DNA of 32,000 bases from Alkalilimnicola ehrlichii MLHE-1 (GTDB taxonomy: Bacteria > Pseudomonadota > Gammaproteobacteria > Nitrococcales > Halorhodospiraceae): positions 2,610,001 to 2,642,000 of the forward strand of contig NC_008340.1 in the NCBI RefSeq assembly GCF_000014785.1, read 5' to 3'. The notes beneath the pieces were generated by a model. The model searched no databases. It was not told where the DNA came from and was given only the letters and a program-made list of their open reading frames with translations. Shown piece by piece: positions 576 to 31,266 of the stretch (positions are counted from its first letter, which is position 1; every line of letters starts with the position of its first letter). Made by a program: the position numbers and the translations under genes.

Positions 576-1543
576 TAACCATTGCCTTCTTCAACAACAA
601 GGGTGGCGTCGGCAAGACTGCTTTGGTCTACCATTTGGCCTGGATGTTCGCCGATCAGGGCCGGTCCGTGCTCGCCGCGGACCTGGACCCCCAAGCCAAC
701 CTCTCCACCATGTTCCTGGACGAACAAAGCCTGGAAGGCTTCTGGCCGGAGGGGGACAGCACGCATACCGTACTCTCACCCATACGCCCACTGCTGGAAG
801 GCGAAGGCGGCATCGAAAGCCCTCATGTTGAGCCCATCGAGGACCTAGGCCTGCTGGTCGGAGACCTGGCCCTGTCCGGCTTCGAGGACGAACTCTCCCA
901 GCAATGGCCCCGCTGCCTGGACGGCGAGAAGCGGGCCTTTCGCATCATCGGCGCCTTTGCCGAAGTCATCCAACGTGCCGGCGCCAACCGGGAAGCCGAC
1001 CTGGCGCTGGTGGATGTCGGCCCCAACCTGGGAGCCATCAATCGTGCCGCACTCATTGCCGCAGATTATGTGGTCGTGCCCCTGGGGCCGGACCTCTTTT
1101 CCCTGAAGGGACTGCAAAACCTGGGCCCCACCCTCCGACGGTGGCGTACGGACTGGCGCAAGCGGCTGCAGGAATTACCCACCAATGTACAAGCCCCATC
1201 GGGGCAAATGACGCCGATCGGTTACGTGGTCATGCAGCATTCCGTCCGACTTGACCGGCCGGTCAAGGCGTATGGCAAATGGATGGACCGGATCCCCAGC
1301 ACTTACCACCGTTACGTCCTCGACAAACCGGACGCTGCCAACCTGCGTGTCGACGACGACAGCGAATGTCTGGCTGCATTGAAGGACTATCGGAGCCTGA
1401 TGCCCATGGCTCAGGAAGCCCGCAAGCCCATGTTTCACCTCAAACCGGCGGACGGCGCCATCGGCTCCCACGTCCGTGCGGTACAAAACTGCTACAAAGA
1501 TTTCCGGGACCTGGCAGCGGCTATCGACAGCCGCACGCAGTGA
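572..1543 (+). CDS. ParA/MinD-like P-loop ATPase (323 aa) with no adjacent parB-like gene
   Basis: GTG 572 overlaps the upstream stop. N-terminal deviant Walker A ITIAFFNNKGGVGKT, DLDPQANLS, and Walker-B-like LALVDVGPNLG. The last codons and stop lie in repeat-like sequence (CGCAGTGACGGTGGGGG). Confidence 0.8.
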   Translation: MITIAFFNNKGGVGKTALVYHLAWMFADQGRSVLAADLDPQANLSTMFLDEQSLEGFWPEGDSTHTVLSPIRPLLEGEGGIESPHVEPIEDLGLLVGDLALSGFEDELSQQWPRCLDGEKRAFRIIGAFAEVIQRAGANREADLALVDVGPNLGAINRAALIAADYVVVPLGPDLFSLKGLQNLGPTLRRWRTDWRKRLQELPTNVQAPSGQMTPIGYVVMQHSVRLDRPVKAYGKWMDRIPSTYHRYVLDKPDAANLRVDDDSECLAALKDYRSLMPMAQEARKPMFHLKPADGAIGSHVRAVQNCYKDFRDLAAAIDSRTQ

Positions 1544-2193
1544 CGGTGGGGGCACCCCCCGTCATCGTGATGAGTGCAGGCCCTCCCCCCGGCATCGCGA
1601 GGGCCGAAGGCCCGTGGCGATCCAAGGCGGTAGACTGCCACGTCGGCTTCGCCTCCTCGCAGTGACGGTGTGGGCAACACCCCCCGTCATCGCGAGGGCC
1701 GAAGGCCCGTGGCGATCCAAGGCGGTAGACTGCCGCGTCGGCTTCGCCTCCTCGCAGTGACGGTGTGGGCAACACCCCCCGTCATCGCGAGGGCCGAAGG
1801 CCCGTGGCGATCCAAGGCGGTAGACTGCCACGTCGGCTTCGCCTCCTCGCAGTGACGGTGGGGTAACACCCCCGTCATCGCGAGGGCCGAAGGCCCGCGG
1901 CGATCCAGGGCGGTAGACTGCCACGTCGGCTTCGCCTCCTCGCAGTGACGGTGGGGGCAACACCCCCCGTCATCGCGAGGGCCGAAGGCCCGCGGCGATC
2001 CAGGGCGGTAGACTGCCACGTCGGCTTCGCCTCCTCGCAGTGACGGTGGGGGCGGATCCGCGCTCGCAGTGACGGTGGGGGCCACCACCACCCCGTCCTC
2101 GCGATGACAGGGGTGTTGCCCCCTCCCCGTCCTCGCGAGGAGCGCCCCCTCCCCCCGTCATCGCGAGGAGCGCAGCGACGTGGCGATCCACAC
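1536..2193 (+). repeat. Hairpin-repeat array A1: 5 full about 94-bp units plus degenerate 3'-arm and type-B units
   Basis: GTCATCGCGAGGGCCGAAGGCCCG starts at 1686, 1781, 1874 and 1969 (period 93-95). An earlier unit lies at about 1587-1670. The tail CCGTCATCGCGAGGAGCGCAGCGACGTGGCGATCCACAC ends near 2193. Confidence 0.92.
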
Positions 2194-2294
2194 GTCAGCC
2201 AAAACACAACGGCATCGGCATCAACACATATCGTCGCGTTATGCGCCAAACACGATACTATTGATTTATGCCTCATAGCACATAAACTATCATC

Positions 2295-2546
2295 ATGATC
2301 GATCTCGCCCGCACGCCGAAGCAGGTCGGCAACCTCATCCGTCGAAGCCGGAAGCAACAGGGCCTTACCCAACAAGCGCTTGGGGCGAAGGCCGGTTACC
2401 GGCAGGAGACCATCTCGCTCATCGAGAATGGCCATCCGGCCGCCAAGCTGGAAACCCTCCTGGCTATCCTCGCCGCGCTCGATCTCGAACTCCGGATCGC
2501 ACCACGCTCCAAGGGAAGCGCCGCTGACATCGAGGACCTCTTCTGA
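2295..2546 (+). CDS. hipB: XRE-family HTH antitoxin, HipB-like (83 aa)
   Basis: HTH core QQGLTQQALGAKAGYRQETISLIENG. Its stop overlaps the hipA start (TGATG). An AT-rich leader lies upstream (2216-2294). Confidence 0.8.
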   Translation: MIDLARTPKQVGNLIRRSRKQQGLTQQALGAKAGYRQETISLIENGHPAAKLETLLAILAALDLELRIAPRSKGSAADIEDLF

Positions 2547-3859
2547 TGCCCCGGCGTCGGCGCCACCCTCCGCTACACGTCCTGCTGAACAACCGCCACG
2601 TCGGCCAGCTCCAAAAGGCGGTGGACGGTGCAATCAGTTTTACCTACGAGCAAAACTGGCTGGACTGGGACCACGCCCTACCCGTCTCGCTCTCCCTTCC
2701 CCTCCGCGAAGACCCCTACCGGGGTGCACCGGTGGCGGCAGTGTTCGACAACCTCCTGCCCGATGCCGAGCCGCTCCGCCGCCGCGTTGCCGAGCGCGTT
2801 GGCGCCGAGGGCACCGACGCCTACAGCCTGCTCTCAGCCATCGGCCATGATTGCGTCGGTGCCCTGCAATTCGTCGGCCCCGACGCCCCGGCCCCCGGCG
2901 ACACCACCCAAATTTCCGGCCAGGTCATTGACGAGGACGACATCGGGAGGCTGCTCCGGGGGCTGGCCCAGGCCCCACTGGGGCTGGACCGCGACGAGGC
3001 ATTCCGGATCTCCATTGCCGGGGTGCAGGAGAAGACCGCCCTGCTCCGGCATGAAGGCCGCTGGCTAAAACCCCACGGCACAACCCCGACCAGCCACATC
3101 CTCAAGCCTCAGATCGGCCAGTTGCCGAACGGCATCGACCTGTCCAACAGCGTCGAGAACGAATACTACTGCCTCAAACTGGCTGCCGCCTTCGGGTTGC
3201 CCGTCAACAGGGCCGAGATCCACACCTTTGGGCCCACCCAAGCACTCGTCGTCGAGCGCTTCGATCGCCACTGGACCCACGACGGCCGCCTGCTCAGACT
3301 CCCGCAGGAGGACTGCTGCCAGGCCCTATCCGTCCCGCCAACACGCAAGTACCAGACCGAGGGTGGCCCCGGTATCGTGCAACTTCTTGAACTGCTCAAC
3401 GGCAGCGACACCCCGGCCAAAGACCAGGCGACCGTCTTCAAGGCACAGATCTTCTTCTGGCTGATCGGCGCTACCGACGGGCACGCAAAGAACTTCAGCC
3501 TGTTTCTGCGGCCACAGGGCGCGTTTCGCCTGACCCCGCTGTACGACATCCTGACCGTCCAGCCGAGCCTTGCCGGCCGGCAAATCGAACGCAAGCAGAT
3601 GAAACTGGCCATGGCCGTGGGGCGCGGAAACCGCTACCGGATCCATGAAATCCAGGGCCGCCATTTCCTACAGACCGGCGCCGCCGCCCGCCTGCCGCGC
3701 ACCTTGGCCACCAACGTCATCGAGGACATAGTGACCCGCGCGGACAACGCCATCACGCAGGTCGAAAGCGCCTTGCCCCCCGACTTCCCCCCGGCAATCC
3801 ACGAAAGCGTGAAGGCGGCCATCGCCGGGCGCCTGGGGGTATTGCAGAGGGCGGGGTGA
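2546..3859 (+). CDS. hipA: HipA-family serine/threonine kinase toxin (437 aa), apparently intact
   Basis: Motifs ISIAGVQEKTALL, catalytic-loop-like GATDGHAKNFSLF and LTPLYDILT. The length matches HipA and the gene is coupled to hipB. Confidence 0.9.
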   Translation: MPRRRRHPPLHVLLNNRHVGQLQKAVDGAISFTYEQNWLDWDHALPVSLSLPLREDPYRGAPVAAVFDNLLPDAEPLRRRVAERVGAEGTDAYSLLSAIGHDCVGALQFVGPDAPAPGDTTQISGQVIDEDDIGRLLRGLAQAPLGLDRDEAFRISIAGVQEKTALLRHEGRWLKPHGTTPTSHILKPQIGQLPNGIDLSNSVENEYYCLKLAAAFGLPVNRAEIHTFGPTQALVVERFDRHWTHDGRLLRLPQEDCCQALSVPPTRKYQTEGGPGIVQLLELLNGSDTPAKDQATVFKAQIFFWLIGATDGHAKNFSLFLRPQGAFRLTPLYDILTVQPSLAGRQIERKQMKLAMAVGRGNRYRIHEIQGRHFLQTGAAARLPRTLATNVIEDIVTRADNAITQVESALPPDFPPAIHESVKAAIAGRLGVLQRAG

Positions 3860-3864
3860 GTGAA

Positions 3865-4296
3865 GGCTTCCCCCCGTCATCGCGAGGGCCGGAGGCCCGT
3901 GGCGATCCAGAGCGGTAGACTGCCACGTCGGCTTCGCCTCCTCGCAGTGACGGTGGGGGCGATTTTCCGCTTCCGGCACAGTCAAGTTCTTCAAGAGAGG
4001 GCCGGAGGCTTTCCCCCCCGTCATCGCGAGGGCCGAAGGCCCGTGGCGATCCAGGGCGGTAGACTGCCGCGTCGGCTTCGCCTCCTCGCAGTGACGGTGG
4101 AGGTAGCCTGCCGCTTCCTGCACCGCCCAGTTGTTCAAGAGTCCCGTAGGGGCGTGGCAGTTCAGGGCGGCGGGTGGATCGCCGCGTCGCTGCGCTCCTC
4201 GCGATGACGGGGAGGGGCTGCGCTCCTCGCGATGACGGGGAGGTGCTGCGCTCCTCGCGATGGCGGGGAGGGGCTGCGGGCCTCGCAATGGCGGGG
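3865..4296 (+). repeat. Hairpin-repeat array A2: 2 full units, two copies of a 37-bp insert module, then inverted type-B and short units
   Basis: Full units at about 3871-3958 and 4015-4098. TTCCGCTTCCGGCACAGTCAAGTTCTTCAAGAG sits at 3960-3997 with a diverged copy at 4099-4141. Reversed GGATCGCCGCGTCGCTGCGCTCCTCGCGATGACGGGG is followed by 28-bp reiterations to about 4296. Confidence 0.9.
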
Positions 4297-4437
4297 TGGT
4301 GGTGCTTTGGGCATCGCGGGGGCGGGGGCGTTTGCGGCGCGGAGGATGGTGCTATGATGCTCATAAGGTCGTGCATTTTTAGTATAAAATAGCTATATAG
4401 TGCACTTTTTCCGATCGCTCTACGGAGAACGAGCCCA

Positions 4438-5559
4438 ATGAAAAAGAAGAACACCCTCACCACCCCCCTCATGCTTTCAGGACTGCTGGTCGGCTCTGCC
4501 TTCACCCTGAGCGGGTGCGTGAGCAGTTCCTCCAGCAGTGGGGACGACGCCACCGGCCCGCAGCATGACAGCCAAGGCGTGTTTGCCGCCGGGGCGCCGC
4601 TGAATAACGAGCAGGAGCTCGACGACGTCATCGCAGCGGCCAACCGGGCCGTCGGCGAGGACGGGGTTGAGCAATTCCTTGATGAGTTGGAAGGTGCAAT
4701 CTTCGTCAAGAGCGTCGATGTGGCCGGTGCCTCGACCACCGATGACGCCGATCGCACCACGGCAGCCCGCGACCGGCTGCGCGAGCGTGCCGGCAGGTGG
4801 CGCCAGGAGGACGCACCGGACCGGGTCATCGCCGCCACCGTCCAGCAGGACGACTGCCCCAACGGCGGCCATATCGTCATCACCAGTGACAGCACCGAAA
4901 ACGACCGTTACGAGCGCTGGGATACCACCGTGGCGTTCCACGGCTGCGCGGTGAACACGCCCTCCTGGGGTGACGTGGTGGTGAACGGGCAGCTCGACGA
5001 AACCTGGGAGGAGTCCTGGGGCGATGAAAACTTCGAGAACTACTCCGTCCACTTCGATATCACCGGCAGCGCCGCCGGGGGTGATCTGGTCCTCTCCGGC
5101 GAGGAACACTGGGGCATCCGCGCTCGGTCGGGCGACGTTTTCTTCAGCGAGCAGGTCCGCATCCCGCGGCTCGAGTTCCTGGCCGGCGAGCACTACATCG
5201 GGTTCCTGGACGTGGACCTGAACTACGTGGAGCGAGAGGTGGAGGAGCAGGGGACCACCCGGTACCCCTACGAAGACCACTGGAGCGGTCGCATCGGCAC
5301 CTCCGGCATGCAGGGCCACATCGCGCTGGATACCCCGAAAACCGTCGCCGGGCCGAACTACGATGCCTGCCCCACAGAGGGCGAGTTGACCATCAGCGGC
5401 AATGGCACCGCCTCCGTGCTCTTCGGGATGGACACCGGCATCTCCAACGCAGAAGTCGCCCTGGTGATCAACAACGCGCTCAGCCAAACCTGGGATGACT
5501 GCGACGACTTCTTCGACGAGTTCGACCTGCTCGAAGGCATCTTCCACGGCGGCCTGTAA
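4438..5559 (+). CDS. Hypothetical acidic lipoprotein (373 aa)
   Basis: Signal peptide with lipobox MKKKNTLTTPLMLSGLLVGSAFTLSGC followed by a Ser-rich linker. GGAGAA RBS upstream. No family recognised. Confidence 0.7.
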   Translation: MKKKNTLTTPLMLSGLLVGSAFTLSGCVSSSSSSGDDATGPQHDSQGVFAAGAPLNNEQELDDVIAAANRAVGEDGVEQFLDELEGAIFVKSVDVAGASTTDDADRTTAARDRLRERAGRWRQEDAPDRVIAATVQQDDCPNGGHIVITSDSTENDRYERWDTTVAFHGCAVNTPSWGDVVVNGQLDETWEESWGDENFENYSVHFDITGSAAGGDLVLSGEEHWGIRARSGDVFFSEQVRIPRLEFLAGEHYIGFLDVDLNYVEREVEEQGTTRYPYEDHWSGRIGTSGMQGHIALDTPKTVAGPNYDACPTEGELTISGNGTASVLFGMDTGISNAEVALVINNALSQTWDDCDDFFDEFDLLEGIFHGGL

Positions 5560-5575
5560 GCCCACCTCAGCACCC

Positions 5576-5599
5576 GGCCCCGGGGGGTTCCCCGGGGCC
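5576..5599 (+). terminator. GC-rich hairpin downstream of the lipoprotein gene (possible terminator, no U-tract)
   Basis: GGCCCCGGGG-GGTT-CCCCGGGGCC, a perfect 10-bp stem 17 nt after the TAA stop. No T-run follows, so an intrinsic-terminator role is uncertain. Confidence 0.35.
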
Positions 5600-5654
5600 C
5601 GTGCCGACACCCTCACCGCATTCCAGCCTCAGTCCGGTACCGGTTCAACGGTCG

Positions 5655-5792
5655 CTATCGCCGCCGCGGCGGCCAGGCCAGGCTGAAGTCCCCGTCGTTA
5701 AAGGCCACCGGCAGGTCGGTCTCGTTCAGTCCGCCCACCGCCTGGTAGCGCTCGCGACGGACCACGAGACAGGCGGCGGTCACCGCCCAGTC
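5655..5792 (-). pseudogene. Internal fragment of a family-2 glycosyltransferase (45 codons between two stops)
   Basis: The minus-strand translation DWAVTAACLVVRRERYQAVGGLNETDLPVAFNDGDFSLAW matches the conserved GT2 block (xxACLxVRRxxxxxVGGxxExxxVAxNDxDxxL). It has no start and is bounded by TAG on both sides. Confidence 0.45.
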
Positions 5793-5840
5793 CTAGCACC
5801 ACGCCCCCGTGCTGCGGGCGCTGCACAAGGGGTGGCCGGG

Positions 5841-6227
5841 ATGATCAGCGTATCCATCGTCAGCCACCGCCACGGCACCATGGTGGCCCGGCTGGTCGAC
5901 GCCCTGCTGGCCCTGCCGGAGGTGGGTCAGGTGGTGCTCACCCTCAACCGCCCGGACTGGGTGGCGGGCCTGTTCATCCTGGTGCGGGCACCGGCCTACC
6001 AGGCGGTGGGCGGCTTCGACGAGGACTACTTCCTCCACTACGAAGACGTGGGCCTCTGCGCCCGCCTCTGGGCCGCCGGCCACCCGGTCGCCCTGGACTG
6101 CAACGTCAGCATCAGCCACGACGCCCAATACCGCAGCCACCGGGACCCCATCCACTTCCTCTGGCACGTCGGCAGCCTACTGCGCTACCTCCGCAAACAC
6201 CAAGGCGGCGCCCGCCGCCCGCAGTAA
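5841..6227 (+). pseudogene. Family-2 glycosyltransferase with a large internal deletion (128 aa left)
   Basis: The N-terminal GT2 start MISVSIVSHRHGTMVARLVDALLALPEVGQVVLTLN joins directly to the C-terminal block DWVAGLFILVRAPAYQAVGGFDEDYFLHYEDVGLCARLWAAGHPV. About 90-100 aa, including the DxD region, are missing. The stop lies in repeat-like sequence. Confidence 0.55.
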
Positions 6228-6244
6228 TCGCGGGGCACCACCTA

Positions 6245-6549
6245 CCCCGTCATCGCGAGGGCCGAAGGCTTTCTCCCCGTCATCGCGAGGGCCGAAGGCT
6301 TTCTCCCCGTCATCGCGAGGGCCGAAGGCCCGTGGCGATCCAGAGGGGTAGACTGCCACGTCGCTTCGCTCCTCGCAGTGACGGTGGGGGCGGATCCGCG
6401 CTCGCAGTGACAGTGGGGGGCGGATCCGCGCTCGCAGTGACAGTGGGGGGCCACCAACGCCCCGTCATCGCGAGGAGCGAAGCGACGCGGCGATCCACAC
6501 CCCGCCATGGACTGCCACGGCCCTACAGGGCACGCAGTGACGGTGGGCC
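6245..6549 (+). repeat. Hairpin-repeat array A3: 2 short 30-bp units, 1 full unit, 2 3'-arm units, 1 type-B unit
   Basis: CCGTCATCGCGAGGGCCGAAGGCTTTCTCC x2, then a full unit, GGCGGATCCGCGCTCGCAGTGACAGTGGGG x2, then CCGTCATCGCGAGGAGCGAAGCGACGCGGCGATCCACAC... A degenerate 3'-arm motif already begins at about 6219. Confidence 0.92.
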
Positions 6550-6606
6550 CGACACATGCCGTACAATACAAGCGTGGATGCCATACTCCCTGGGAGGCCC
6601 GGGACA

Positions 6607-6852
6607 ATGAAACAGGAAACGACCAAGATCACCATCCGTCTACCGCGACAAGACGTCGAGTTCGCCAAGGCCTACGCCAGGGCGCACGGCCTCAGCATGA
6701 CTGAAGTCATTGATCGTTACCTGCGTCGCCTGCGGGCGCTAGAGCGCCACCAGCCCAGCCCCGAACTGGACGCGATCACCGGCCTGCTGCCAGCCGACCT
6801 GGACGCTGAACAGGCGTACCGAGACCACTTAGTCGAGAAACATCGCCCGTGA
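6607..6852 (+). CDS. vapB: Ribbon-helix-helix-type antitoxin partner of the PIN toxin (81 aa)
   Basis: KITIRLPRQDVEFAKAYARAHGLSMTEVIDRYL is a typical RHH/CopG-like N-terminus. GGGAGG RBS lies at about 6591. The stop overlaps the vapC start (GTGA). ATG 6556 is an alternative start. Confidence 0.7.
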   Translation: MKQETTKITIRLPRQDVEFAKAYARAHGLSMTEVIDRYLRRLRALERHQPSPELDAITGLLPADLDAEQAYRDHLVEKHRP

Positions 6853-7250
6853 TCATGCTGGACCTGAACGTTCTTCTGGACGTTCTGCAAAAAAGGGCGC
6901 CGCATTATCAGGCATCCGCCGCCGTCCTCGAGCATGTCATCCACGGTGAAGAACAAGGCGCACTCAGCGCGCACGCAGTCACTACGGTTCACTACCTGGT
7001 GAGCCGGTACGCGACTCGCGCCGCGGCGGACGGCGCCCTGGATTGGCTTCTCCGGCACTTTCACGTGTGTGCAGTGGGCCGTGACGAACTGGAACAGGCC
7101 CGGTCCCTTGGCTGGCCCGACTTCGAGGACGCGGTTCTGGCATGTGTCGCGCAGAGTGCCGGGTGCAGCTACATCGTGACGCGAAATATCAAGGACTTCG
7201 AACGATCACCGGTAACGGCGTTAACGCCGCAGGAGTGGCTACTTCGCTGA
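6849..7250 (+). CDS. vapC: PIN-domain ribonuclease toxin VapC (133 aa)
   Basis: MLDLNVLLD (first acidic residue), WPDFEDAVLACVAQ and YIVTRNIKDF are typical PIN signatures. The gene is coupled to the upstream RHH gene. Confidence 0.85.
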   Translation: MIMLDLNVLLDVLQKRAPHYQASAAVLEHVIHGEEQGALSAHAVTTVHYLVSRYATRAAADGALDWLLRHFHVCAVGRDELEQARSLGWPDFEDAVLACVAQSAGCSYIVTRNIKDFERSPVTALTPQEWLLR

Positions 7251-7265
7251 GCTGAGTCCGAACCC

Positions 7266-7592
7266 TCCGTCATCGCGAGGGCCTCCTCCCCCGTCATCGC
7301 GAGGGCCGAAGGCTTTCCCCCCGTCATCGCGAGGGCCGAAGGCTTTCTCCCCGTCATCGCGAGGGCCGAAGGCCCGTGGCGATCCAGAGGGGTAGACTGC
7401 CACGTCGCTTCGCTCCTCGCAGTGACAGGGGGCGCACCCCCCGTCATCGCGAGGGCCGAAGGCCCGTGGCGATCCAGGGCGGTAGACTGCCACGTCGGCT
7501 TCGCCTCCTTGCAGTGACGGGGTGGCCCCTCCCCCGTCATCGCGAGGAGCGCAGCGACGCGGCGATCCATACCCCGGCATGGACTGCCACGC
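7266..7592 (+). repeat. Hairpin-repeat array A4: 3 short units, 2 full units, 1 type-B unit
   Basis: Same unit types as A3. The type-B end CCGTCATCGCGAGGAGCGCAGCGACGCGGCGATCCATACCCCGGCATGGACTGCCAC lies at about 7535-7592. Confidence 0.92.
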
Positions 7593-7666
7593 CCCTTCGT
7601 AGGCTTGCACAGCCAGTGTAAGGAACAACGGCTACGTTGAGATCAGGCCAAGGAAGACATATCATA

Positions 7667-8089
7667 ATGATAAGTCCCAAACCAAACGTAAGCGCCTTTG
7701 ATGGTTTCCCACCTACGGCGACTGAAGACCGCGCCATCCAGGGTGGGCCACTGTATCCGCCGGACACCGTGGTGGCGCTGGCGAGGGAAGAAGCGCTCGC
7801 TTTCTGGAGCCGAGGGGCTATTCGAGACGCAGAGAAGTGGGGGCTTGATGTCCCGAGCGCGTGTCAATTAGTGGTAATGGCCGTCCGGCACGGCCACTAC
7901 CTGGGCGCACAATGGTGCATCCAGGGGCCTCGCGGGCCATGGGCAGCCTGCGACGCCTACAAAGTCACGAATCACGAGTGGATCGAGCATGCCCATCGGC
8001 ACATACCGGTCACGTATTACCTGAAATTTTGTATCGCGAAGACCGGAGCAATGCTGCTTTCGGTCTCCAACCACCCGGAGGGTACCTGA
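7667..8089 (+). CDS. mqsR: MqsR-family toxin (about 140 aa)
   Basis: The C-terminal pattern ACDAYKV...YYLKFCIAKTGAMLLSVSNH parallels E. coli MqsR (WQDVYRP...VYLKITVIHDVLIVSFKE). It lies directly upstream of an MqsA-type antitoxin. AGGAAG RBS precedes ATG 7667; ATG 7637 is an alternative start. Confidence 0.7.
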   Translation: MISPKPNVSAFDGFPPTATEDRAIQGGPLYPPDTVVALAREEALAFWSRGAIRDAEKWGLDVPSACQLVVMAVRHGHYLGAQWCIQGPRGPWAACDAYKVTNHEWIEHAHRHIPVTYYLKFCIAKTGAMLLSVSNHPEGT

Positions 8090-8090
8090 C

Positions 8091-8705
8091 ATGACCCGGG
8101 GCACTCGCAACGCACTACGGCCCTGCCCCGCCTGTGGCGAGGGTCGCCTGGAGCCCAGGCAAACGACTCAGCGGGCGGAACATGCCGGCCTCAGCGAGGC
8201 AATCCCATTGCACTACGCCGTGTGCGACACCTGCGGATCCGAACTCGCAGAAGCCCCCGAGGCGAAAGCCAACAAGCGCGCCATGACCGCATTTCGCAAG
8301 CGCGCCGATGGCCTGCTCACCGGGGCGCAGATGCGGCAGGCCCGCAAAGCGCTGGGGCTTACGCAGGCGCAGGCCGCAAAGCTGTTCGGCGGCGGCCAAG
8401 TAGCCTTCTCCCGCTATGAGAACGACGACATCACGCAAAGCGAGGCCATGGACAGCCTGGTCCGCGTTTGCCTGGCCCAACCAGCCAACCTGACATTGCT
8501 GGCTGACCAAAAGGGCGTCTCAGCAATATTCACAACGGACGACAACTGGGCCAACGCACTCGTGCGGCGCCACATCCTTGGCATCAAGAGCGCCCTGGAG
8601 CACCAGATCGCCCCGGACCGCGTTGCCGAGCCAAGCCCTCAAGACCCCTTGAAGCGACACGCCAAAGTCATTGACATTCAGCGTTGGAGAAAAGCCGCAG
8701 CATGA
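8091..8705 (+). CDS. mqsA: MqsA-type antitoxin: N-terminal zinc ribbon, XRE HTH and a long C-terminal extension (204 aa)
   Basis: CPACGEG...CDTCGSE Cys4 ribbon, then LTGAQMRQARKALGLTQAQAAKLFGGGQVAFSRYENDD HTH. There are about 65-70 extra C-terminal residues relative to the 131-aa E. coli MqsA. Confidence 0.8.
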   Translation: MTRGTRNALRPCPACGEGRLEPRQTTQRAEHAGLSEAIPLHYAVCDTCGSELAEAPEAKANKRAMTAFRKRADGLLTGAQMRQARKALGLTQAQAAKLFGGGQVAFSRYENDDITQSEAMDSLVRVCLAQPANLTLLADQKGVSAIFTTDDNWANALVRRHILGIKSALEHQIAPDRVAEPSPQDPLKRHAKVIDIQRWRKAAA

Positions 8706-9139
8706 AAGCCAGCCCGCTGACCCTGCACGGGATCGAGTTCGTGCGCGTCCACGTAGAATCCGATCTCGAGGCGGAAACACGCCGTGCAGAGCAATTCCAG
8801 TTCGACGGCACCACTCTAAAGTGGGGGCTGGACCACGGTCGCGACGAGGATAACGGAACTTGGTGGGTGGCCGTTGGTTTCGGGACCCACCAAGAGGACG
8901 ACGAACCACGGTGTCCCTACATTTTGGATGTCCAGGCCGTCGGCATCGTTTCTGTCTCGGACCAGCTCCCCGAGAAAGACCACGAAAAACTCGCTTTCGA
9001 ATACGGCGCCGCCCTCGTCTACGGCGCCATTCGCGAGATGGTCACCAACATCACCGCCCGTAGCCTCGCCGGACCGCTAATGCTTCCCACGCCAAGCTTC
9101 ATCGGCGCACTGGAAACAAGAAAGCAGCCGGGCAACTGA
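8702..9139 (+). CDS. SecB-like chaperone (145 aa), third gene of a TAC-type locus
   Basis: ATGA overlap with mqsA. The pattern CPYILDVQAVGIVSV...FEYGAALVYGAIREMVTNITARSLAGPLMLPTPSF matches the SecB core (C..Q.GIF.....YP.ARE.I....SRG.FP.L.L.P.NF). Confidence 0.7.
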   Translation: MKASPLTLHGIEFVRVHVESDLEAETRRAEQFQFDGTTLKWGLDHGRDEDNGTWWVAVGFGTHQEDDEPRCPYILDVQAVGIVSVSDQLPEKDHEKLAFEYGAALVYGAIREMVTNITARSLAGPLMLPTPSFIGALETRKQPGN

Positions 9140-9160
9140 GAGACACCGCTTGCCTCCCCA

Positions 9161-9701
9161 CCCCGTCATCGCGAGGGCCGAAGGCTTTCCCCCCGTCATC
9201 GCGAGGGCCGAAGGCTTTCCCCCCGTCATCGCGAGGGCCGGAGGCCCGTGGCGATCCAGAGGGGTAGACTGCCGCGTCGGCTTCGCCTCCTCGCAGTGAC
9301 GGGGTGGCCCCTCCCCCCGTCATCGCGAGGGCCGGAGGCCCGTGGCGATCCAGGGCGGTAGACTGCCGCGTCGGCTTCGCCTCCTCGCAGTGACGGGGTG
9401 GCCCCTCCCCCCGTCATCGCGAGGGCCGGAGGCCCGTGGCGATCCAGGGCGGTAGACTGCCGCGTCGGCTTCGCCTCCTCGCAGTGACGGGGTGGCCCCT
9501 GCCCCGTCATCGCGAGGGCCGGAGGCCCGTGGCGATCCAGAGGGGTAGACTGCCGCGTCGGCTTCGCCTCCTCGCAGTGACGGGGTGGCCCCTCCCCCCG
9601 TCATCGCGAGGGCCGAAGGCCCGTGGCGATCCAGGGCGGTAGACTGCCGCGTCGGCTTCGCCTCCTCGCAGTGACGGGGTGGCCCCTCCCCCCGTCATCG
9701 C
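9161..9701 (+). repeat. Hairpin-repeat array A5: 2 short units, 5 full units, and a 6th unit cut after CCGTCATCGCA
   Basis: Full-unit starts at 9225, 9319, 9413, 9506 and 9600 (period 93-94). The last unit is truncated at 9701, where the hipB-like coding sequence begins. Confidence 0.93.
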
Positions 9702-9953
9702 AAGGGGTGGACCCAGGAAGAACTCGCTGAGCGAGTCGGCGTTGGCGTGATCACGATCCGCCGGGTTGCCAAGGGCTCCCCCCGGGTGGCCATCGGCACT
9801 TACTTTGAAGCGGCCGCACTGGTTGGGGTTTCACTGTTCACCGATGATCCGGACAGGCTCAAACGCGAGCATGCAACCCAGCAGGAACGGCTGACGCTGC
9901 TACCCAAGCGAGTCCGTCGTCAAACACCAGAGCCCCTCGACGATGATTTCTAG
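9702..9953 (+). pseudogene. 5'-truncated XRE/HipB-like antitoxin gene (N-terminus replaced by the repeat array)
   Basis: The frame reads ...KGWTQEELAERVGVGVITIRRVAKGSPRVAIGTYFEAAALVGVSL, i.e. helix 2-3 of an XRE HTH without helix 1 or a proper start. Only an internal GTG at 9747 is available. Confidence 0.6.
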
Positions 9954-10185
9954 CAACCGCGCTTATGTCTGGATCTGGCTGCCCGGCCAGACATCGCCTG
10001 TAGTAGCCGGACTTGTTGAGCGCGACGACCAAGACCGGTACCGCTTTGCCTATGGTCGGCGCTATCTGGCCCGTGAAGATGCAATCAGCCTGTATCCCGA
10101 CGAACTGCCCTGCTGTAGTCATCGCCGCCAGCGGCATGTGCGAATGACGAACCACGGCTTCCCCAGCATTTCCCTAACGGCCTGA
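9943..10185 (+). pseudogene. HipA N-terminal fragment (80 codons, homology lost after about 55 aa)
   Basis: AYVWIWLPGQTSPVVAGLVERDDQDRYRFAYGRRYLAREDAISLYPDELP is the HipA N-terminal subdomain pattern. The kinase core is absent. Confidence 0.65.
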
Positions 10186-10331
10186 AACATGCAGCAGCGG
10201 TGTTAGACTAAACCGAGGTCAAAACCCTCATCGCCACGTGGTGGATCAAAGGCCAGAACATTGCCCACGAGCCCCAGGAATACACAAGGCTCCGAGAAAA
10301 ATCGCCGTCCTCAAGAATTGCCCATGGAGAC

Positions 10332-10766
10332 ATGATGCGGACTCGAGCCCGCCCCAAAAGGAATTCCAAGCGCCGGCTACATCCTGAATTGACCGTCGAG
10401 CGGCGCCGGGCACTCGCCCAGTGTGTCAAATATGTCGGCAGCCCCTTGCACAAGCGCAACCCCGGTGATTTCGGGCTGACGCCGCCCGTTGCGGCCCGTC
10501 CCGGGAAGAGCCTGTGTGATGATGTCTCGATCTTCGAGCGAGACAAGGCTCAGGTGCTGCTGCGAGAGGGAGTGCAAGCGGGCCTTGTAAGCCGTGATGC
10601 CGACGAGGGCTTCCCGCGCCACATCTGGATGGTTCACGAAGGGCGAGTCATCGAGGCACGTTGTGACAACATGGAAGCCGGAACCTACCATGGCTACCCC
10701 CTGGAAGCCGACGATCCCATGGCCGATGCTGTAAAGCGCGAATGGAGCCGGAGGCAAGCAGAATGA
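10332..10766 (+). CDS. Hypothetical basic 144-aa protein, first gene of an unknown two-gene operon
   Basis: GGAGA RBS. Arg/Lys-rich N-terminus. Conserved-looking blocks YVGSPLHKRNPGDFGL and GTYHGYPL. Its stop overlaps the next start (ATGA). No family recognised with confidence. Confidence 0.6.
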   Translation: MMRTRARPKRNSKRRLHPELTVERRRALAQCVKYVGSPLHKRNPGDFGLTPPVAARPGKSLCDDVSIFERDKAQVLLREGVQAGLVSRDADEGFPRHIWMVHEGRVIEARCDNMEAGTYHGYPLEADDPMADAVKREWSRRQAE

Positions 10767-12097
10767 GCGATACCCTGCGATTCGACTGGGAGTGGCTGGC
10801 CTACCCAGAATTGCCTGCTGAAGAGGCTGTGACCTTTGCTGACCTGAGCATCCGGCTCAACGACAAGGCCATGACTCGCCTCTACGACGTGGCCGCCAAG
10901 ACCGAGCGCGACAACCTTTTCGCTGCCGCGTACCCGTTGGCTCAATTTCTAGCGGAAAACTGGTGGCGCATCCGCTGGGAGCCCGCGCCGGCCAGTCTTT
11001 CAAACGCGGGGCCACAGTGGCGTCTGGCGCATAACATCGCAGCCGCTGGTGCCGGCTATGTCTGGCCCAACATCACCTTCCACGGCGATGGCGAGCGGAT
11101 GTTCATGCACGTCGGACCCCACACCTCTGAGTCCTCCGCCGTGCAGTTCGTCTCGGAGGGAAATGGTGTGCTCGACGCCGCAATGTTCGAAGCAGAGGCC
11201 GATCGTTTCATGGAAGGCGTCTTGGCCCGACTGCAAGCCTGTGGCCACCCGGATACGGAGCTCGAACAGCTCTGGCGAGCGGTCCAGGCCGAGCGTTCCA
11301 GCAACGAAGACTGTGAGCGGCGGCGGCTGGAGGCCATGGCGGGCTTCGATCCCGACGAAGCGCCAGAGGCCATGCTGGACGAACTGTTGCAGCTCGAACA
11401 GCGCCTTGGGGTTTCAGCCATCCGAGAATTGGCTGCGGCCTCGCGGGCAAACACACTGGACCATGTGCGAACCCTGGAAGAGGCACTTTGTGCTCGGGGC
11501 CTTCGGTATCAGGTCCCGGATACGAGTCGAATGAGGATTGAATGGCCTGCCCCGCCATGGCGCAGGGCTGTCGAAGTCGCAAAGGCCGCTCGACAGGCCT
11601 GGGGCCTGAACAATGGCCCACTGGATAACACGCAGCTCGCCGCCATCGTGGATCTACCGCGCGAGCAGCTTGACTCTTCGGCACCTGAAGCAGTGCCCTA
11701 CAGCGCGAGCCTGCGCGGGGGGGAAGAGGGCGACAGACTAGTGTTCAGAACCGGCCATCGGCACGGACGCCGCTTCGCAATCGGTCGCCTGATGGGTGAC
11801 GCCTTCTACTCACCCGGGGAAGGGGGGGCACTGGCGGCCGCAACGGATGCCCGGACGGGACGCCAGAAGTTTCAGCGGGCCTTCGCGCAGGAGCTGCTGT
11901 GCCCATTCGAGGCATTGAGCGACTTTCTCAACCTGGGCCAGGACTGGGATGCATGTGACGATATCACCCCCCCGAACGAGGACCGCATCGAAGAGGCAGC
12001 GGAGTATTTCGACGTCTCACCGGTGCTCGTTCAGAGCACGCTTGTCAACCACAACGTCTTGCCCCGCGACGTACTCGAAATAACGGACGCCGCCTGA
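10763..12097 (+). CDS. Hypothetical 444-aa protein whose C-terminal region resembles an ImmA/IrrE (M78) domain lacking the HExxH motif
   Basis: GGAGG lies 8 nt upstream of ATG 10763. N-terminal block AAAYPLAQFLAENWWRIRWEP. The C-terminal GRRFAIGRLMGDAF...RQKFQRAFAQELLCPFEAL aligns with the M78 pattern RRFTLAHELGHLL...E.EANRFAAELLMP. Confidence 0.65.
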   Translation: MSDTLRFDWEWLAYPELPAEEAVTFADLSIRLNDKAMTRLYDVAAKTERDNLFAAAYPLAQFLAENWWRIRWEPAPASLSNAGPQWRLAHNIAAAGAGYVWPNITFHGDGERMFMHVGPHTSESSAVQFVSEGNGVLDAAMFEAEADRFMEGVLARLQACGHPDTELEQLWRAVQAERSSNEDCERRRLEAMAGFDPDEAPEAMLDELLQLEQRLGVSAIRELAAASRANTLDHVRTLEEALCARGLRYQVPDTSRMRIEWPAPPWRRAVEVAKAARQAWGLNNGPLDNTQLAAIVDLPREQLDSSAPEAVPYSASLRGGEEGDRLVFRTGHRHGRRFAIGRLMGDAFYSPGEGGALAAATDARTGRQKFQRAFAQELLCPFEALSDFLNLGQDWDACDDITPPNEDRIEEAAEYFDVSPVLVQSTLVNHNVLPRDVLEITDAA

Positions 12098-12121
12098 GAA
12101 CCCGAGGAGCCAAACAACACA

Positions 12122-12619
12122 CTGTCATCGCGAGGGCCGAAGGCTTTCCCCCGTCATCGCGAGCCCCCCACCCCGCTGCGCGGGCCCGAATCAACGAGGA
12201 ACGGGGCACCCCCGGTCATCGCGAGGGCCGAAGGCCCGTGGCGATCCAGGGCGGTAGACTGCCGCGTCGGCTTCGCCTCCTCGCAGTGACGGTGGGGGCG
12301 ACTTTCCGCTTCCGGCACAGTCAAGTTCTTCAAGAGGGCCGAAGGCCCGTGGCGATCCAGGGCGGTAGACTGCCACGTCGGCTTCGCCTCCTCGCAGTGA
12401 CGGGGTGGCCCCTCCCCCCGTCATCGCGAGGGCCGAAGGCCCGTGGCGATCCAGAGGGGTAGACTGCCACGTCGGCTTCGCCTCCTCGCAGTGACGGTGG
12501 GGATGGGGCCCCGCTCGCAGTGACGGTGTGGATGGGCCCCCGCTCGCAGTGACGGTGGGGGCGGGTCCGCTCCTCGCGGTGACGGTGGGGGCGGGTCCAC
12601 GCTTGCAGTGGCGATGAGG
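12122..12619 (+). repeat. Hairpin-repeat array A6: 1-2 short units, 3 full units (one carrying the 37-bp insert module), 4 3'-arm units
   Basis: Full units lie between about 12214 and 12495. TTCCGCTTCCGGCACAGTCAAGTTCTTCAAGAG is at 12300-12337. Reiterated GCTCGCAGTGACGGTGKGG-type units run from 12496 to 12619. Confidence 0.92.
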
Positions 12620-12648
12620 CACCACCACCCAAAAAGGAGAACACCACC

Positions 12649-14031
12649 ATGGACGACCCCACCCTCCTCCACCACGGCGGCGCTGACGGCGTCACCGGCA
12701 GTTGCCACCAACTCTACGCCAGCCCCGACCACTCACTCCTCATCGACTGCGGCCTCTTCCAAGGCGAAGACGCCGGCCCCGACCCCCTCGCCCAACACAC
12801 CGTCGACTTCGACGTCGACACCCTCCAGGCCCTCGTCCTCACCCACGTCCACATCGACCACGTCGGCCGGCTGCCCTACCTGCTGGCCGCCGGCTACCGC
12901 GGCCCCATCCTCTGCAGCCACCCCTCCGCCCACCTGCTGCCGCTGGTCATTGACGACGCCCTGCGCATCGGCTTCACCCGTGACGGCCAACTCATCGCGC
13001 GCTTCCAGCAGCAGGTCCAAAACCAACTGACCCCCCTCAAATACAGCCGCTGGCACACCGTCACCGACAACCGCCACCTCACCCTCAAGGTCCGCCTGGA
13101 GCGCGCCGGCCACATCCTCGGCTCCGCCTACGTCAAAGTCGCCATCCGGGACAAACGCACCGGCCGCACACACCGCACCGTCTTCTCAGGCGACCTGGGC
13201 GCCCCCGGCTCGCCGCTGCTGCCCGCCCCGCAATCGCCCCACCACGCCGACCTCCTCGTCCTGGAGGCCACCTACGGCGACCGCAGCCACGAAAACCGCG
13301 ACCAGCGCCGCCACCGCCTGCGCCAGGCCATCGAACACGCCGTGCAGGACGGCGGCACCGTCATCATCCCCGCCTTCAGCATCGGCCGCACCCAGGTGCT
13401 GCTCCACGAGCTGGAAGCGCTCACCCACACCGCCCAAGGCCCCTGGCGCCACCTGCGCATCATCGTCGACTCCCCCCTGGCCGCCCGCTTCAACCGCGTC
13501 TACCGCCGCCTGAAACCCTACTGGGACCAAGAGGCCAGAAAACGGGCCCGACAAGGCCGCCACCCCCTCAACTTCAGCCGCCTGCACACCGTCGACAGCC
13601 ACGCCCAACACCAACACACCGTCACCACCCTGGCCCAGGGCGGCCACCCGGCCGTGGTCATCGCCGCCAGCGGCATGTGCGCCGGCGGCCGCGTCGTCAA
13701 CTACCTGAAAGCCATGCTCGGCGACCCACGCCACCACGTGCTGTTCGTCGGCTACCAAGCGGAAGGCACCCCCGGGCGGGACATCCAGCGCTACGGCCCA
13801 ACCGGCGGCTGGGTAGACCTGGACGGAGAACGGTTCGACATCCGCGCCGGCGTCACCACCATCGGCGGCTACTCCGCCCATGCAGACCAACAGGACCTAC
13901 TGCGGTTCGTACAACAGATGAAGCGCCCACCCGGCACCATCCGACTGGTGCACGGCAGCGCCCGCGCCCGGGAGACACTGGCCAACGCCCTCACCCGGCA
14001 GGGCCATACCGTGACCCAGGGAGGGTCATGA
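12649..14031 (+). CDS. Beta-CASP family metallo-beta-lactamase-fold nuclease (RNA-metabolising MBL hydrolase), 460 aa
   Basis: AAAGGAGAA RBS. LLIDCGLFQG, HxHxDH motif LTHVHIDHVGRLPYL, later SGDLG, IPAFSIGRTQ, GYSAHADQ and RLVHGS, typical of beta-CASP enzymes. Confidence 0.85.
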   Translation: MDDPTLLHHGGADGVTGSCHQLYASPDHSLLIDCGLFQGEDAGPDPLAQHTVDFDVDTLQALVLTHVHIDHVGRLPYLLAAGYRGPILCSHPSAHLLPLVIDDALRIGFTRDGQLIARFQQQVQNQLTPLKYSRWHTVTDNRHLTLKVRLERAGHILGSAYVKVAIRDKRTGRTHRTVFSGDLGAPGSPLLPAPQSPHHADLLVLEATYGDRSHENRDQRRHRLRQAIEHAVQDGGTVIIPAFSIGRTQVLLHELEALTHTAQGPWRHLRIIVDSPLAARFNRVYRRLKPYWDQEARKRARQGRHPLNFSRLHTVDSHAQHQHTVTTLAQGGHPAVVIAASGMCAGGRVVNYLKAMLGDPRHHVLFVGYQAEGTPGRDIQRYGPTGGWVDLDGERFDIRAGVTTIGGYSAHADQQDLLRFVQQMKRPPGTIRLVHGSARARETLANALTRQGHTVTQGGS

Positions 14032-14076
14032 CTTCAGAGGCCCGGCACTCCCGCCACGGCGGGGCCCCGCCCCCTC

Positions 14077-14399
14077 CCCCGTCACTGCGAGCGCCGAAGG
14101 GGCGTGACAGTCCATACGGCGTGTGGATCGCCGCGTCGCTTCGCTCCTCGCGATGACGGGGGCGGCGCCCCCACCGTCACCGCGAGAGCGGACCCGCCCC
14201 CACCGTCACTGCGGGCGGGGGCCCATCCACACCGTCACTGCGAGGAGGCGAAGCCGACGTGGCAGTCTACCCCTCTGGATCGCCACGGGCCTTCGGCCCT
14301 CGCGATGACGGGGGAAAGCCTTCGGCCCTCGCGATGACGGGGGAAAGCCTTCGACCCTCGCGATGACGGTGAGAAAGCCCTCGGCCCTCACGATAACGG
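14077..14399 (-). repeat. Hairpin-repeat array A7, inverted orientation: type-B, 3 3'-arm units, 1 full unit, 4 short units as read on the + strand
   Basis: Reverse complements of all unit types are present, e.g. GGAGGCGAAGCCGACGTGGCAGTCTACCCCTCTGGATCGCCACGGGCCTTCGGCCCTCGCGATGACGGGGG and GAAAGCCTTCGGCCCTCGCGATGACGGGG reiterated. Confidence 0.9.
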
Positions 14400-14514
14400 A
14401 AGCACCACCCCCAACTAATCCTTCCGATAGGTTGCACCGCACCATCCCCCATGCTTTACTCCCTAACATCGTTCACCCAGTGAACGACACAACCCTTCGC
14501 ACCCCCCAAGGATG

Positions 14515-14560
14515 GCCGTGCCACCGCATGTCATCCTTGCGGTAGCGTGCCCGAAAGCCG
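14515..14560 (+). repeat. Left copy of the 46-bp direct repeat flanking the ATPase/DUF4276 module
   Basis: GCCGTGCCACCGCATGTCATCCTTGCGGTAGCGTGCCCGAAAGCCG, 45/46 identical to 16355-16400. Confidence 0.9.
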
Positions 14561-14657
14561 GCACCAGGATATGAAAGCAGACGGCTCCCAAACGACATGC
14601 GACAAGGTTTTGGGACCCTACACGTATTGAGGCACACCGAATGAAGGGACTGATTCA

Positions 14658-15788: not shown

Positions 15789-15791
15789 GTG

Positions 15792-16354: not shown

Positions 16355-16400
16355 GCCGTGCCACCGCATGTCATCCTTGCGGTAGCGTGCTCGAAAGCCG
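16355..16400 (+). repeat. Right copy of the 46-bp direct repeat, starting immediately after the DUF4276 stop
   Basis: GCCGTGCCACCGCATGTCATCCTTGCGGTAGCGTGCTCGAAAGCCG. Confidence 0.9.
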
Positions 16401-16433
16401 ACCCCACACGTCACCGGGGGCCCCACACCCTCA

Positions 16434-16628
16434 CCCCGTCAATGCGAGCCCCGAACCCTTCACCCTCGTCACTGCGAGCCCCCGAAGGGGGCGCGGCAGT
16501 CCACCGCCCTGGATCGCCACGGGCCTTCGGCCCTCGCGATGACGGGGGAAAGCCTTCGGCCCTCACGATGACGGGGTGATGCCTCCCCACCGGCCCTGCG
16601 AACCGCCAAAAGGGGCGCGGCAGTCCAC
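16434..16628 (-). repeat. Hairpin-repeat array A8, inverted and degenerate (about 1 full unit plus arm units), abutting the glycan locus
   Basis: CCCTCGTCACTGCGAGCCCCCGAAGGGGGCGCGGCAGTCCACCGCCCTGGATCGCCACGGGCCTTCGGCCCTCGCGATGACGGGGG plus GAAAGCCTTCGGCCCTCACGATGACGGGG. It ends 5 nt before ATG 16633. Confidence 0.8.
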
Positions 16629-16632
16629 AACC

Positions 16633-31146: not shown

Positions 31147-31266
31147 CGGAACCTCTCTGCGCCCCCCTGTTCAGGTTCAAACTCTAACACCAGGTGAAGT
31201 TCCAACTAGCTTGACAGTGGGGGATGCCTAGAGGCGTCGATGCAATCATCAGGGACCTGACATTTT

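Follow-up and report, generated by a model that had tools for sequence, protein, structure and literature searches.

Repetitive extragenic palindromic (REP) sequences are among the commonest non-coding repeats in bacteria. In Escherichia coli they build the bacterial interspersed mosaic elements (BIMEs) described by Gilson, Bachellier and Hofnung, most typically BIME-2, which are intergenic mosaics in which REPs alternate in orientation and are accompanied by defined additional motifs. Y and Z REPs alternate in them with fixed linkers, and BIMEs amplify in tandem with copy numbers that vary from strain to strain. The pneumococcal BOX element follows a fixed module order (boxA, n copies of boxB, boxC), the number of internal modules being variable. 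Here we analyze nine arrays of REP-type hairpin units in Alkalilimnicola ehrlichii MLHE-1, eight of which (A1 to A8) lie in a 32,000-nucleotide stretch of the chromosome (NC_008340.1, positions 2,610,001 to 2,642,000; hereafter the window) and one just upstream. The arrays bear on how REPs of the CGTC class, to which these units are related, spread.

Elements of the CGTC superfamily consist of a CGTC tag (variants TGTC and CCTC), a stem of 8-9 bp that begins with A-T pairs, a loop of 4-5 nt and a tail that is mostly CCA; they occur mainly as head-to-head (HH) dimers, often heterodimers, and have no dedicated transposase (PMC3733652). According to Di Nocera, De Gregorio and Rocco in 2013, grouped elements are rare in this class and head-to-tail (HT) dimers negligible (PMC3733652). 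Ordered clusters are known from Pseudomonas fluorescens SBW25, where REP doublets forming hairpins (REPINs) are repeated in tandem as near-identical inverted doublets including their flanks; these are of the GTAG type and linked to genes for REP-associated tyrosine transposases (RAYTs) (PMC3116915).

The locus in A. ehrlichii and a survey of metagenomes together yield one widespread CGTC family, defined by its monomer architecture, a heterodimer rule and a tag-side grammar of its clusters. The window is identical to CP183314.1, the type strain MLHE-1, and was compared with CP184336.1, strain SGAR-12; both genomes are independent, closed and assembled from hybrid Nanopore/Illumina data (PMC12509624). 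Units were mapped by motif parsing and by nhmmer with four profile models (head-short, full, tail-short and type B) built from the units themselves. The genomic DNA examined amounts to about 35 kb of the 3.26-Mb genome; the SGAR-12 locus is referred to as L021 and the locus upstream of the window as L022. Metagenomes were scanned with a pattern of two head cores within 51 bp, which is neutral as to the order of truncated and complete units and gave at least 120 loci (L023-L142). Stem covariation was counted on distinct units of the window and of a further 135 loci, and heterodimers on L023-L142 and the window, the metagenomic part being the matches listed.

Hairpin monomers, heterodimers and a mirror-symmetric layout

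All nine arrays follow one order, in which head-only units are followed by full units, then by tail-only units and usually by a type-B unit. An earlier reading of the DNA letters alone (the sequence-only reading) had described this order in A3 to A7, and the profile and motif maps agree with it; the order is also kept in A1 (1532-2196), A8 (16430-16577) and the upstream array (L022 1600-2420). Departures from it are few: A2 has an inverted B cluster to which three 28-bp head-short units belong, A5 closes at its 3' end with a stub made of a head alone, and in A1 a head fragment (2097-2112) is inverted. The repeat is far commoner than chance would give: the 12-mer core CGTCAYYGCGAG has 57 exact copies in the window against 0.04 expected from shuffles, Tandem Repeats Finder (TRF) reports sub-arrays with periods of 30, 29-30 and 90-95 bp at 96-100% identity, and the four unit models have no match in the window outside the arrays. 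Full units are 0.94 identical within arrays and 0.90 between them, a weak signal that is confounded by indels.

The sequence-only reading took the short units to be the two arms of a single hairpin. Each arm of a full unit is instead a separate REP monomer, a hairpin of 34-37 nt that reads CGTC, AYYGC, GAG, a variable inner mini-hairpin, CG(T/C)G, GCRRT and CC(A). Its 5-bp stem (AYYGC/GCRRT) is followed by a conserved internal loop, GAG/CGYG. This assignment follows from compensatory changes in the stem, since the closing strand is GCGAT for 177 of 183 ATCGC stems, GCAAT for 72 of 73 ATTGC stems and GCAGT for 35 of 37 ACTGC stems. Each core pairs perfectly with the closing strand about 25 nt away in its own arm, whereas pairing between the head core and the tail core is imperfect, with one conserved C.A mismatch and one G.T wobble. 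In the left monomer the first two stem pairs are A-T and T-A, in the right one A-T and C-G. The tail is CCA in 98 of 185 distinct complete monomers; in the window it reads CCA in the left and CTA in the right monomer, and the TGTC variant of the tag is present in tail-short units.

The inner hairpins vary in sequence and keep their self-complementarity: a closing stem of at least 3 bp is found in 43% of interiors compared to 2% of shuffles. These inner stems measure 3-5 bp and carry a GAA or GNRA-like loop, many interiors having C-GAA-G, GCGAAGC or GNRA-like loops. Left monomers of type-B units (6463-6497, 7535-7569 and 2156-2190) contain GCGAAGC or GCGCAGC, and the monomers of full units a related C-GAA-G loop.

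As the arms are hairpins in their own right, the full unit is an inverted heterodimer with its tags outward, similar to a REPIN, and a 6-nt spacer separates its two monomers. Convergent complete pairs number 20 in the window and 142 in the metagenome loci listed. Heterodimers dominate among the loci listed (about 139 of 172), with 120 pairs of ATCGC and ATTGC and 19 of ATCGC and ACTGC next to 15 homodimers; owing to this rule, the long pairing between head and tail always retains a mismatch. Folded as one long imperfect hairpin, the full unit reaches -50 kcal/mol on the plus and -55 kcal/mol on the minus strand (z of -3.5 and -4.9). A conserved four-way junction and a single conserved long hairpin are both ruled out by the mismatched head/tail pairing and the covariation of the stems inside each monomer. 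The type-B unit is a second heterodimer subfamily, of which A1 and A2 also contain truncated 28-bp units.

Head-short and tail-short units turn out to be the same object, namely truncated monomers with the tag outward that lie in opposite orientations and are aimed at the dimer. They hold the tag, the 5' strand of the stem and the inner hairpin or filler, and lack the closing strand. The layout of the arrays is therefore mirror-symmetric, and the internal polarity ascribed to them by the sequence-only reading does not hold for the short units. The sole true polarity is that of the B cluster, which lies on one side in five of six arrays. Full units are amplified in tandem, and truncated monomers stand only on the tag side, that is the outer side, of dimers in both orientations.

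The same mirror layout is found in many of the metagenome loci, in unrelated taxa. Runs comprise six short units, a dimer and about seven short units (L031/L027), five short units and a dimer (L032), eight short units and a complete monomer (L045), or a dimer and eight short units (L139). Among genome loci, L010 and L019 have head-short runs ahead of a full dimer, L010 with four tail-short units in addition. Where a truncated and a complete monomer are neighbors in the same orientation, the truncated one comes first in 185 cases and second in 12 among these at least 120 loci; the corresponding numbers in the window are 12 and 0. The order thus goes beyond a random scatter of REPs, as had been proposed from the letters, and the possibility that short units are full units decayed at random positions is ruled out by the same counts among the loci listed. 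A motif-blind run of TRF found 136 tandem repeats in the loci listed, 104 of them with the tag core and none with the closing strand alone.

The 13-nt core CGTCAYYGCGAGG is almost invariant across phyla, and a 23-mer of the left monomer, CCGTCATCGCGAGGGCCGAAGGC, has exact copies at the genome loci L005-L019, which include Georgfuchsia, Lysobacteraceae, Caulobacter, Acetobacteraceae, Burkholderiaceae, Halorhodospira and Pseudomonas, a deltaproteobacterium and a metagenome-assembled genome of Thermoanaerobaculia (Acidobacteriota). To judge from these matches, sharing of the 23-mer by alpha-, beta-, gamma- and deltaproteobacteria and Acidobacteriota would imply either horizontal spread or a very strong constraint on the core. 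The head-short unit specific to A. ehrlichii has no match in the metagenome scan, and a protein search with the open reading frame (ORF) spanning an array returned two matches only. Complete monomers also occur on 28 viral or proviral contigs of IMG/VR (L143-L170), one of which (L163) carries a tandem of three dimers; none of the IMG/VR contigs has head cores in tandem runs.

Array map, genomic setting and strain differences

The composition of the arrays in the window is given in Table 1. The counts of the sequence-only reading stand for A4, A5 and A6, with a first head-short unit of reduced length in A4, an additional stub in A5 and, in A6, a longer head variant and one X-substituted unit among the three full ones. 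For A3 the counts are likewise right; the length of about 33 bp assigned to its tail-short units is not. In A7 the reverse-complement order is confirmed, while the earlier figures of four and three short units are too high by one each, because they include the arms of the full unit.

Table 1. Repeat arrays, their units and the intervening cassette in the window (coordinates in window positions)
Feature	Position	Strand	Description	Basis
A1	1532..2196	+	REP tail core with ParA-like stop codon, degenerate head, 5 full, 1 tail-short, odd B-type heads, B left monomer	motif parse, nhmmer
A2	3871..4300	.	2 full separated by X segments, then inverted B cluster (B and 3-4 28-bp B-type head-short, minus strand)	TRF, motif parse, nhmmer
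A3, whole	6244-6548	+	2 head-short, 1 full, 2 tail-short, B	nhmmer, motif parse
A3 head-short x2	6244..6303	+	30 bp each	nhmmer; TRF 100% identity
A3 full unit	6304..6389	+	86 bp, tags-outward (HH) heterodimer	nhmmer, stem covariation
A3 full, left monomer	6308-6342	+	stem ATCGC/GCGAT, tail CCA	
A3 full, right monomer	6349-6383	-	stem ACTGC/GCAGT, tail CTA	
A3 tail-short x2	6390..6448	-	29-30 bp, truncated monomers: TGTC tag, ACTGC, GAG, GCGGATCCGC palindrome	nhmmer
A3 type-B unit	6459..6548	+	90 bp, second REP heterodimer subfamily	nhmmer
A3 type-B, left monomer	6463-6497		interior GAGGAGCGAAGCGACGCG	
A3 type-B, right monomer	6508-6542	-		
RHH (DUF6364) antitoxin and PIN toxin	6607..7250	+	gene cassette between A3 and A4, not part of the repeat	
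A4, whole	7264-7609	+	3 head-short, 2 full, B	nhmmer, motif parse
A4 head-short x3	7264..7347	+	24, 30 and 30 bp (first only 24)	
A4 full x2	7348..7525	+	heterodimers	
A4 first full unit, monomers	7352-7386; 7393-7427	+; -		
A4 second full unit, monomers	7442-7476; 7483-7519	+; -		
A4 type-B unit	7531..7609	+	complete left monomer 7535-7569, degenerate tail	
A5	9160..9706	+	2 head-short, 5 full, 3'-terminal truncated head-only stub	TRF, motif parse, nhmmer
A6	12119..12620	+	1 head-short, 61-62-bp head variant (H'), full, X-substituted full, full, 3-4 tail-short	TRF, motif parse, nhmmer
A7	14074..14399	-	3 head-short, 1 full, 2 tail-short, B	motif parse, nhmmer
A8	16430..16577	-	1 head-short, 1 full, 1-2 degenerate tail-short	motif parse, nhmmer

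The head-short units of A3 consist of a CGTC tag, ATCGC, GAG, a GGCC-GAA-GGC mini-hairpin and TTTC, with no closing strand. Some units of A. ehrlichii are altered by a 38-nt segment named X (core ...TTCCGCTTCCGGCACAGTCAAGTTCTTCAAGAG), which replaces the tag and ATCGC and always joins the repeat at GAG; it is located at 3965-3997 and 12304-12336 of the window and at L021 9376 and 10660, and was found in A. ehrlichii loci only.

The first 17 kb of the window form a toxin-antitoxin (TA) and defense island with all genes on the plus strand. It encodes an SLFN/AlbA_2-HATPase protein, a ParA-like protein, HipBA, a 373-aa protein, an RHH-PIN pair, MqsA-like and SecB-like proteins, a beta-CASP nuclease and an AAA_21 (MADS3-like) ATPase with DUF4276; a Wadjet-like JetABC system lies upstream (L022 1-3151). 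Each module of the island is followed by a repeat array, and the sugar-biosynthesis operon at 17-29 kb has none. Arrays start 12-22 bp past stop codons and separate the variable TA and defense modules that they flank; three of the nine run opposite to the genes around them, and one has divergent genes on its two sides. At its end the sugar cluster has an insertion sequence on the minus strand (29600-31231), with an rve-family integrase, that bears no relation to the arrays.

No array in the window adjoins a transposase-like protein; there is likewise no recurrent neighboring protein family that could be a candidate transposase across the 135 loci listed, and no RAYT gene in the roughly 35 kb examined. 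Rfam has no match over the window at the gathering score, and a permissive search of 6200-7650 returned only chance miRNA-like matches with E above 1. Sequence words of the repeat hit only chance primers in the full-text literature, where nothing was found on Alkalilimnicola together with REPs.

The comparison of unit counts between strains that had been suggested from the letters is informative, as flanking DNA is 98.7-99.6% identical in MLHE-1 and SGAR-12 while every comparable array differs in its unit numbers and keeps its unit order. From MLHE-1 to SGAR-12, the upstream array goes from one head-short, seven full, one tail-short and a B unit to one, four, one and B; A1 from five full units to one; A4 from two 30-bp head-short and two full units to one and four, one of the four being X-substituted; A5 from two head-short and five full units to two and two; and the tail of A3 from two tail-short units to one.

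Larger changes have their borders in arrays as well. MLHE-1 has a two-gene block between A2 and A3 (4438-6227), with the inverted B cluster on one side and a forward array on the other, that SGAR-12 lacks; it contains the 373-aa protein, for which no Pfam or NCBIfam match was obtained, and a C-terminal glycosyltransferase fragment. SGAR-12 has at this site (L021 9130-9720) one mosaic array, A6-like in its 5' part and with the tail of A3 as its 3' part. A deletion of about 1.24 kb in SGAR-12 (window 12135-13378; L021 19495-19645) runs from the 61-62-bp head variant of A6 into the beta-CASP gene and truncates the nuclease to 259 aa compared to 460 aa. The TGA stop (1541-1543) of the ParA-like ORF 320-1543 lies within the REP tail core CACGCAGTGACGG (1532-1551), which reads CAGTTACGG in SGAR-12, where the ORF is 21 codons longer and continues into the first full unit (323 versus 344 aa; L021 6360-7394). 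Downstream of A5, a group II intron reverse transcriptase and an element of the IS21 family with its transposase and IstB are found in SGAR-12 (L021 13295-16914) and are not in MLHE-1.

Given the differences in unit number, the mosaic array and the end-point of the deletion, the arrays are hypervariable and recombinogenic. They behave as markers between close strains, much like variable number tandem repeats (VNTRs), they break short-read assemblies, and they alter gene ends, in one case by a stop codon inside the repeat and in another by a deletion that starts in an array.

Origin of the tag-side order

The explanation we favor, with a probability of roughly 0.6, is that the arrays are clusters of CGTC-tagged REPs shaped by local duplication and subsequently by slippage or unequal exchange at hairpin-forming dimers. 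Mini-hairpins of the C-GAA-G, GCGAAGC and GCGCAGC type are exceptionally stable in DNA, and hairpins in the nascent strand promote duplication between short direct repeats. Replication would stall or slip at the very stable REP hairpins with inner loops of the C-GAA-G or GCGAAGC type, and slippage would seed a short tandem duplication that begins a few bases before the tag and ends at a variable position within the monomer. Direct repeats of 21-31 bp and 94 bp formed in this way could then expand and contract by slippage or unequal recombination, and recombination between arrays would spread and mix unit types, among them the common GGCTTTC joint and the X segment. The head-short, full, tail-short order would follow from this geometry, and neither head nor tail would need a function of its own. 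When a segment containing the tag is duplicated in tandem, the truncated copy can come to lie on the tag side only, so the order is in part geometric and trivial. It is most simply seen as a by-product of replication slippage and not as a designed head and tail; the functional head and tail considered in the sequence-only reading find no support in the data.

Several observations are in line with this explanation. Short units end on their right at breakpoints between 13 and 35 nt after the tag, and most periods among the loci listed fall within 21-31 bp (mode 24), a spread that speaks against a cut defined by an enzyme. A copy of the filler stands in the upstream flank of about 24% of runs, compared to about 2% in two controls, clear cases being L019, L045 and, in SGAR-12, the first unit of the hipA array; in the last of these, GAAGGC in the 3' flank of the gene and GGAGGC in the monomer are 29 bp apart. 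In A. ehrlichii and L019 the breakpoint falls immediately after the GGCC-GAA-GGC mini-hairpin, and units within one run are near-identical. Slippage or unequal exchange, which had already been proposed from the letters, also fits the strain comparison, in which the numbers of head-short, full and tail-short units all change under a constant order.

A number of results weigh against it. About three quarters of the short-unit runs have no copy of the flank in their filler, which leaves duplication in situ including the flank unsupported for most of them. The GGCTTTC joint is common to all A. ehrlichii arrays and does not derive from local flanks, which requires recombination to carry units or blocks from one array to another. 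Passive stalling predicts duplications on the tail side too, and there are none among the tandem repeats of the loci listed. Short-unit runs accompany 16% of dimers and 9% of monomers, a difference that is not significant, and are thus not clearly restricted to dimers. The placement of the B cluster on one side is not explained, the strain comparison consists of two assemblies only, and the conservation of the 13-nt core across phyla hints at a trans-acting factor. Because of the fillers that are not flank copies, the joint shared by all arrays, the lack of duplications on the tail side and the almost invariant core, an enzyme directed by the tag and selection for extra cores are both kept as minority explanations.

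Selection would make the arrays multi-copy protein-binding sites or structural modules of RNA or DNA, for instance insulators, stabilizers of mRNA 3' ends or recombination hot spots for TA and defense genes, with a tuned copy number. We consider this unlikely. Their position 12-22 bp after stop codons between such modules, and the two-gene block and the deletion that end in arrays, would suit a function of this kind; REPs elsewhere are reported to act as elements of the 3' untranslated region (10.64898/2026.03.23.713779), and specific roles for ordered clusters were proposed by Bertels and Rainey (PMC3116915). Copy numbers, however, vary freely between strains, the arrays match no Rfam family, their periods are without clear helical phasing, and three of nine arrays are inverted to their flanking genes, with one between divergent genes. 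Nor does any array contain a terminator-like site: a reading of the repeats as intrinsic terminators finds no support, as none of the seven terminator-like sites in 1400-16700 is in an array and shuffles give 10.5. The alternative of a trans-acting nuclease or transposase, HUH/RAYT-like or other, that reads CGTC-AYYGC-GAG and leaves the products of abortive or one-ended copying from the tag appears a little more doubtful. It would account for the strict tag-side asymmetry with no repeats of the closing strand alone among the loci listed, for the core kept across phyla, for the majority of fillers that are not flank copies and for the internal loop GAG/CGYG, whose conservation resembles that of a recognition feature; furthermore, no transposase is known for CGTC REPs (PMC3733652). 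Against it stand the variable breakpoints and periods, the failure to find a recurrent neighboring protein family in the 135 loci listed or a transposase-like protein adjoining the arrays of the window, and the change in copy number of the 94-bp full unit, which is ordinary VNTR behavior. Unlikely as well is the more specific proposal that the truncated runs are footprints of a putative trans-acting enzyme that nicks or primes at the CGTC tag with the core CGTCAYYGCGAGG and the GAG/CGYG loop. Tag-side asymmetry is in any case a clue to the propagation of CGTC REPs, whether by hairpin-induced slippage or by a tag-directed enzyme. If the enzyme existed, it would be the missing mobilizing activity of a class that has been without a transposase since its definition in 2013, and the arrays, which display cleavage side, polarity and recognition motif, would be a sequence handle for finding it.

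Three further explanations carry very little weight. In an integron-like array, full units would act as attC-like sites at which a site-specific recombinase shuffles TA and defense cassettes, and the co-oriented small gene modules, the imperfect palindrome after each and the module present in only one strain do recall such a system. The units nevertheless lack the attC cores RYYYAAC/GTTRRRY, their ends being CCGTCATCGCGAGG and CCTCGCAGTGACGG, and no integrase is among the annotated genes of the roughly 35 kb examined, two points on which the integron reading fails; in addition, units run in tandem up to seven, many taxa have single copies of the repeat in ordinary intergenic DNA, and the strain difference is a mosaic and not a clean cassette excision. 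Highly improbable is also a palindromic miniature element that inserts into its own center like a Russian doll and leaves n heads, a core and n tails. Equal counts of heads and tails in A3 (two and two), the upstream array (one and one) and A8 and a whole-array fold that permits nested pairing of heads and tails agree with nesting; yet among 67 clusters with short units 59 are one-sided, which rules it out, and 8 are equal, head and tail counts change independently between strains, the short units lack the inner halves expected of an interrupted element, and the ensemble frequency of the nested fold is negligible. Mis-assembly of repeats, finally, could produce false counts or a false order, and short-read Logan contigs of A. 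ehrlichii do break at the arrays. It is hardly credible here, since two independent closed hybrid genomes agree on the order at every orthologous array, arrays of at most 0.8 kb are well inside single long reads, and over 100 unrelated assemblies share this architecture.

Relation to known repeat clusters

Compared to the described systems, the arrays are closest in their details to CGTC REPs, with which they share the terminal CGTC or TGTC, a stem that opens with an A-T pair, the CCA tail, the prevalence of HH heterodimers and the absence of an adjacent transposase (PMC3733652). They depart from that class in a monomer of 34-37 nt whose 5-bp stem is followed by an internal loop and an inner mini-hairpin, so that they fit none of its four families exactly, and in large ordered clusters with common head-to-tail runs of truncated units (PMC3733652). 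The host is a gammaproteobacterium (Ectothiorhodospiraceae), and the family is found in many other phyla as well, which again differs from the CGTC REPs as described (PMC3733652). Within the CGTC class, the dRS3/NIME repeats of Neisseria (CGTC-1) offer a parallel in their large intergenic clusters with other repeats interleaved and variable gene content nearby (PMC3733652). dRS3, however, is an inverted repeat of 20 bp found at the borders of unrelated RS units and serves as an integration target for phages and insertion sequences (PMC3733652), and it has neither a heterodimer core nor truncated flanking runs.

The repeated entity itself, a hairpin-forming inverted REP doublet in ordered tandem clusters, is that of the SBW25 REPINs, yet those are of the GTAG type, come with RAYT genes and have no flanking runs of truncated monomers described for them (PMC3116915). 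A different contrast emerges with the BOX element of pneumococci, whose sequence and structure are unlike those of the units studied here and whose variable module is internal and complete, not an outer truncated copy. BIMEs of E. coli are not known to have the mirrored runs of truncated REPs that the arrays possess, and their sequences, of the GTAG type, are unrelated. Taken together, the arrays are a variant within the known clusters of REP, BIME and REPIN type.

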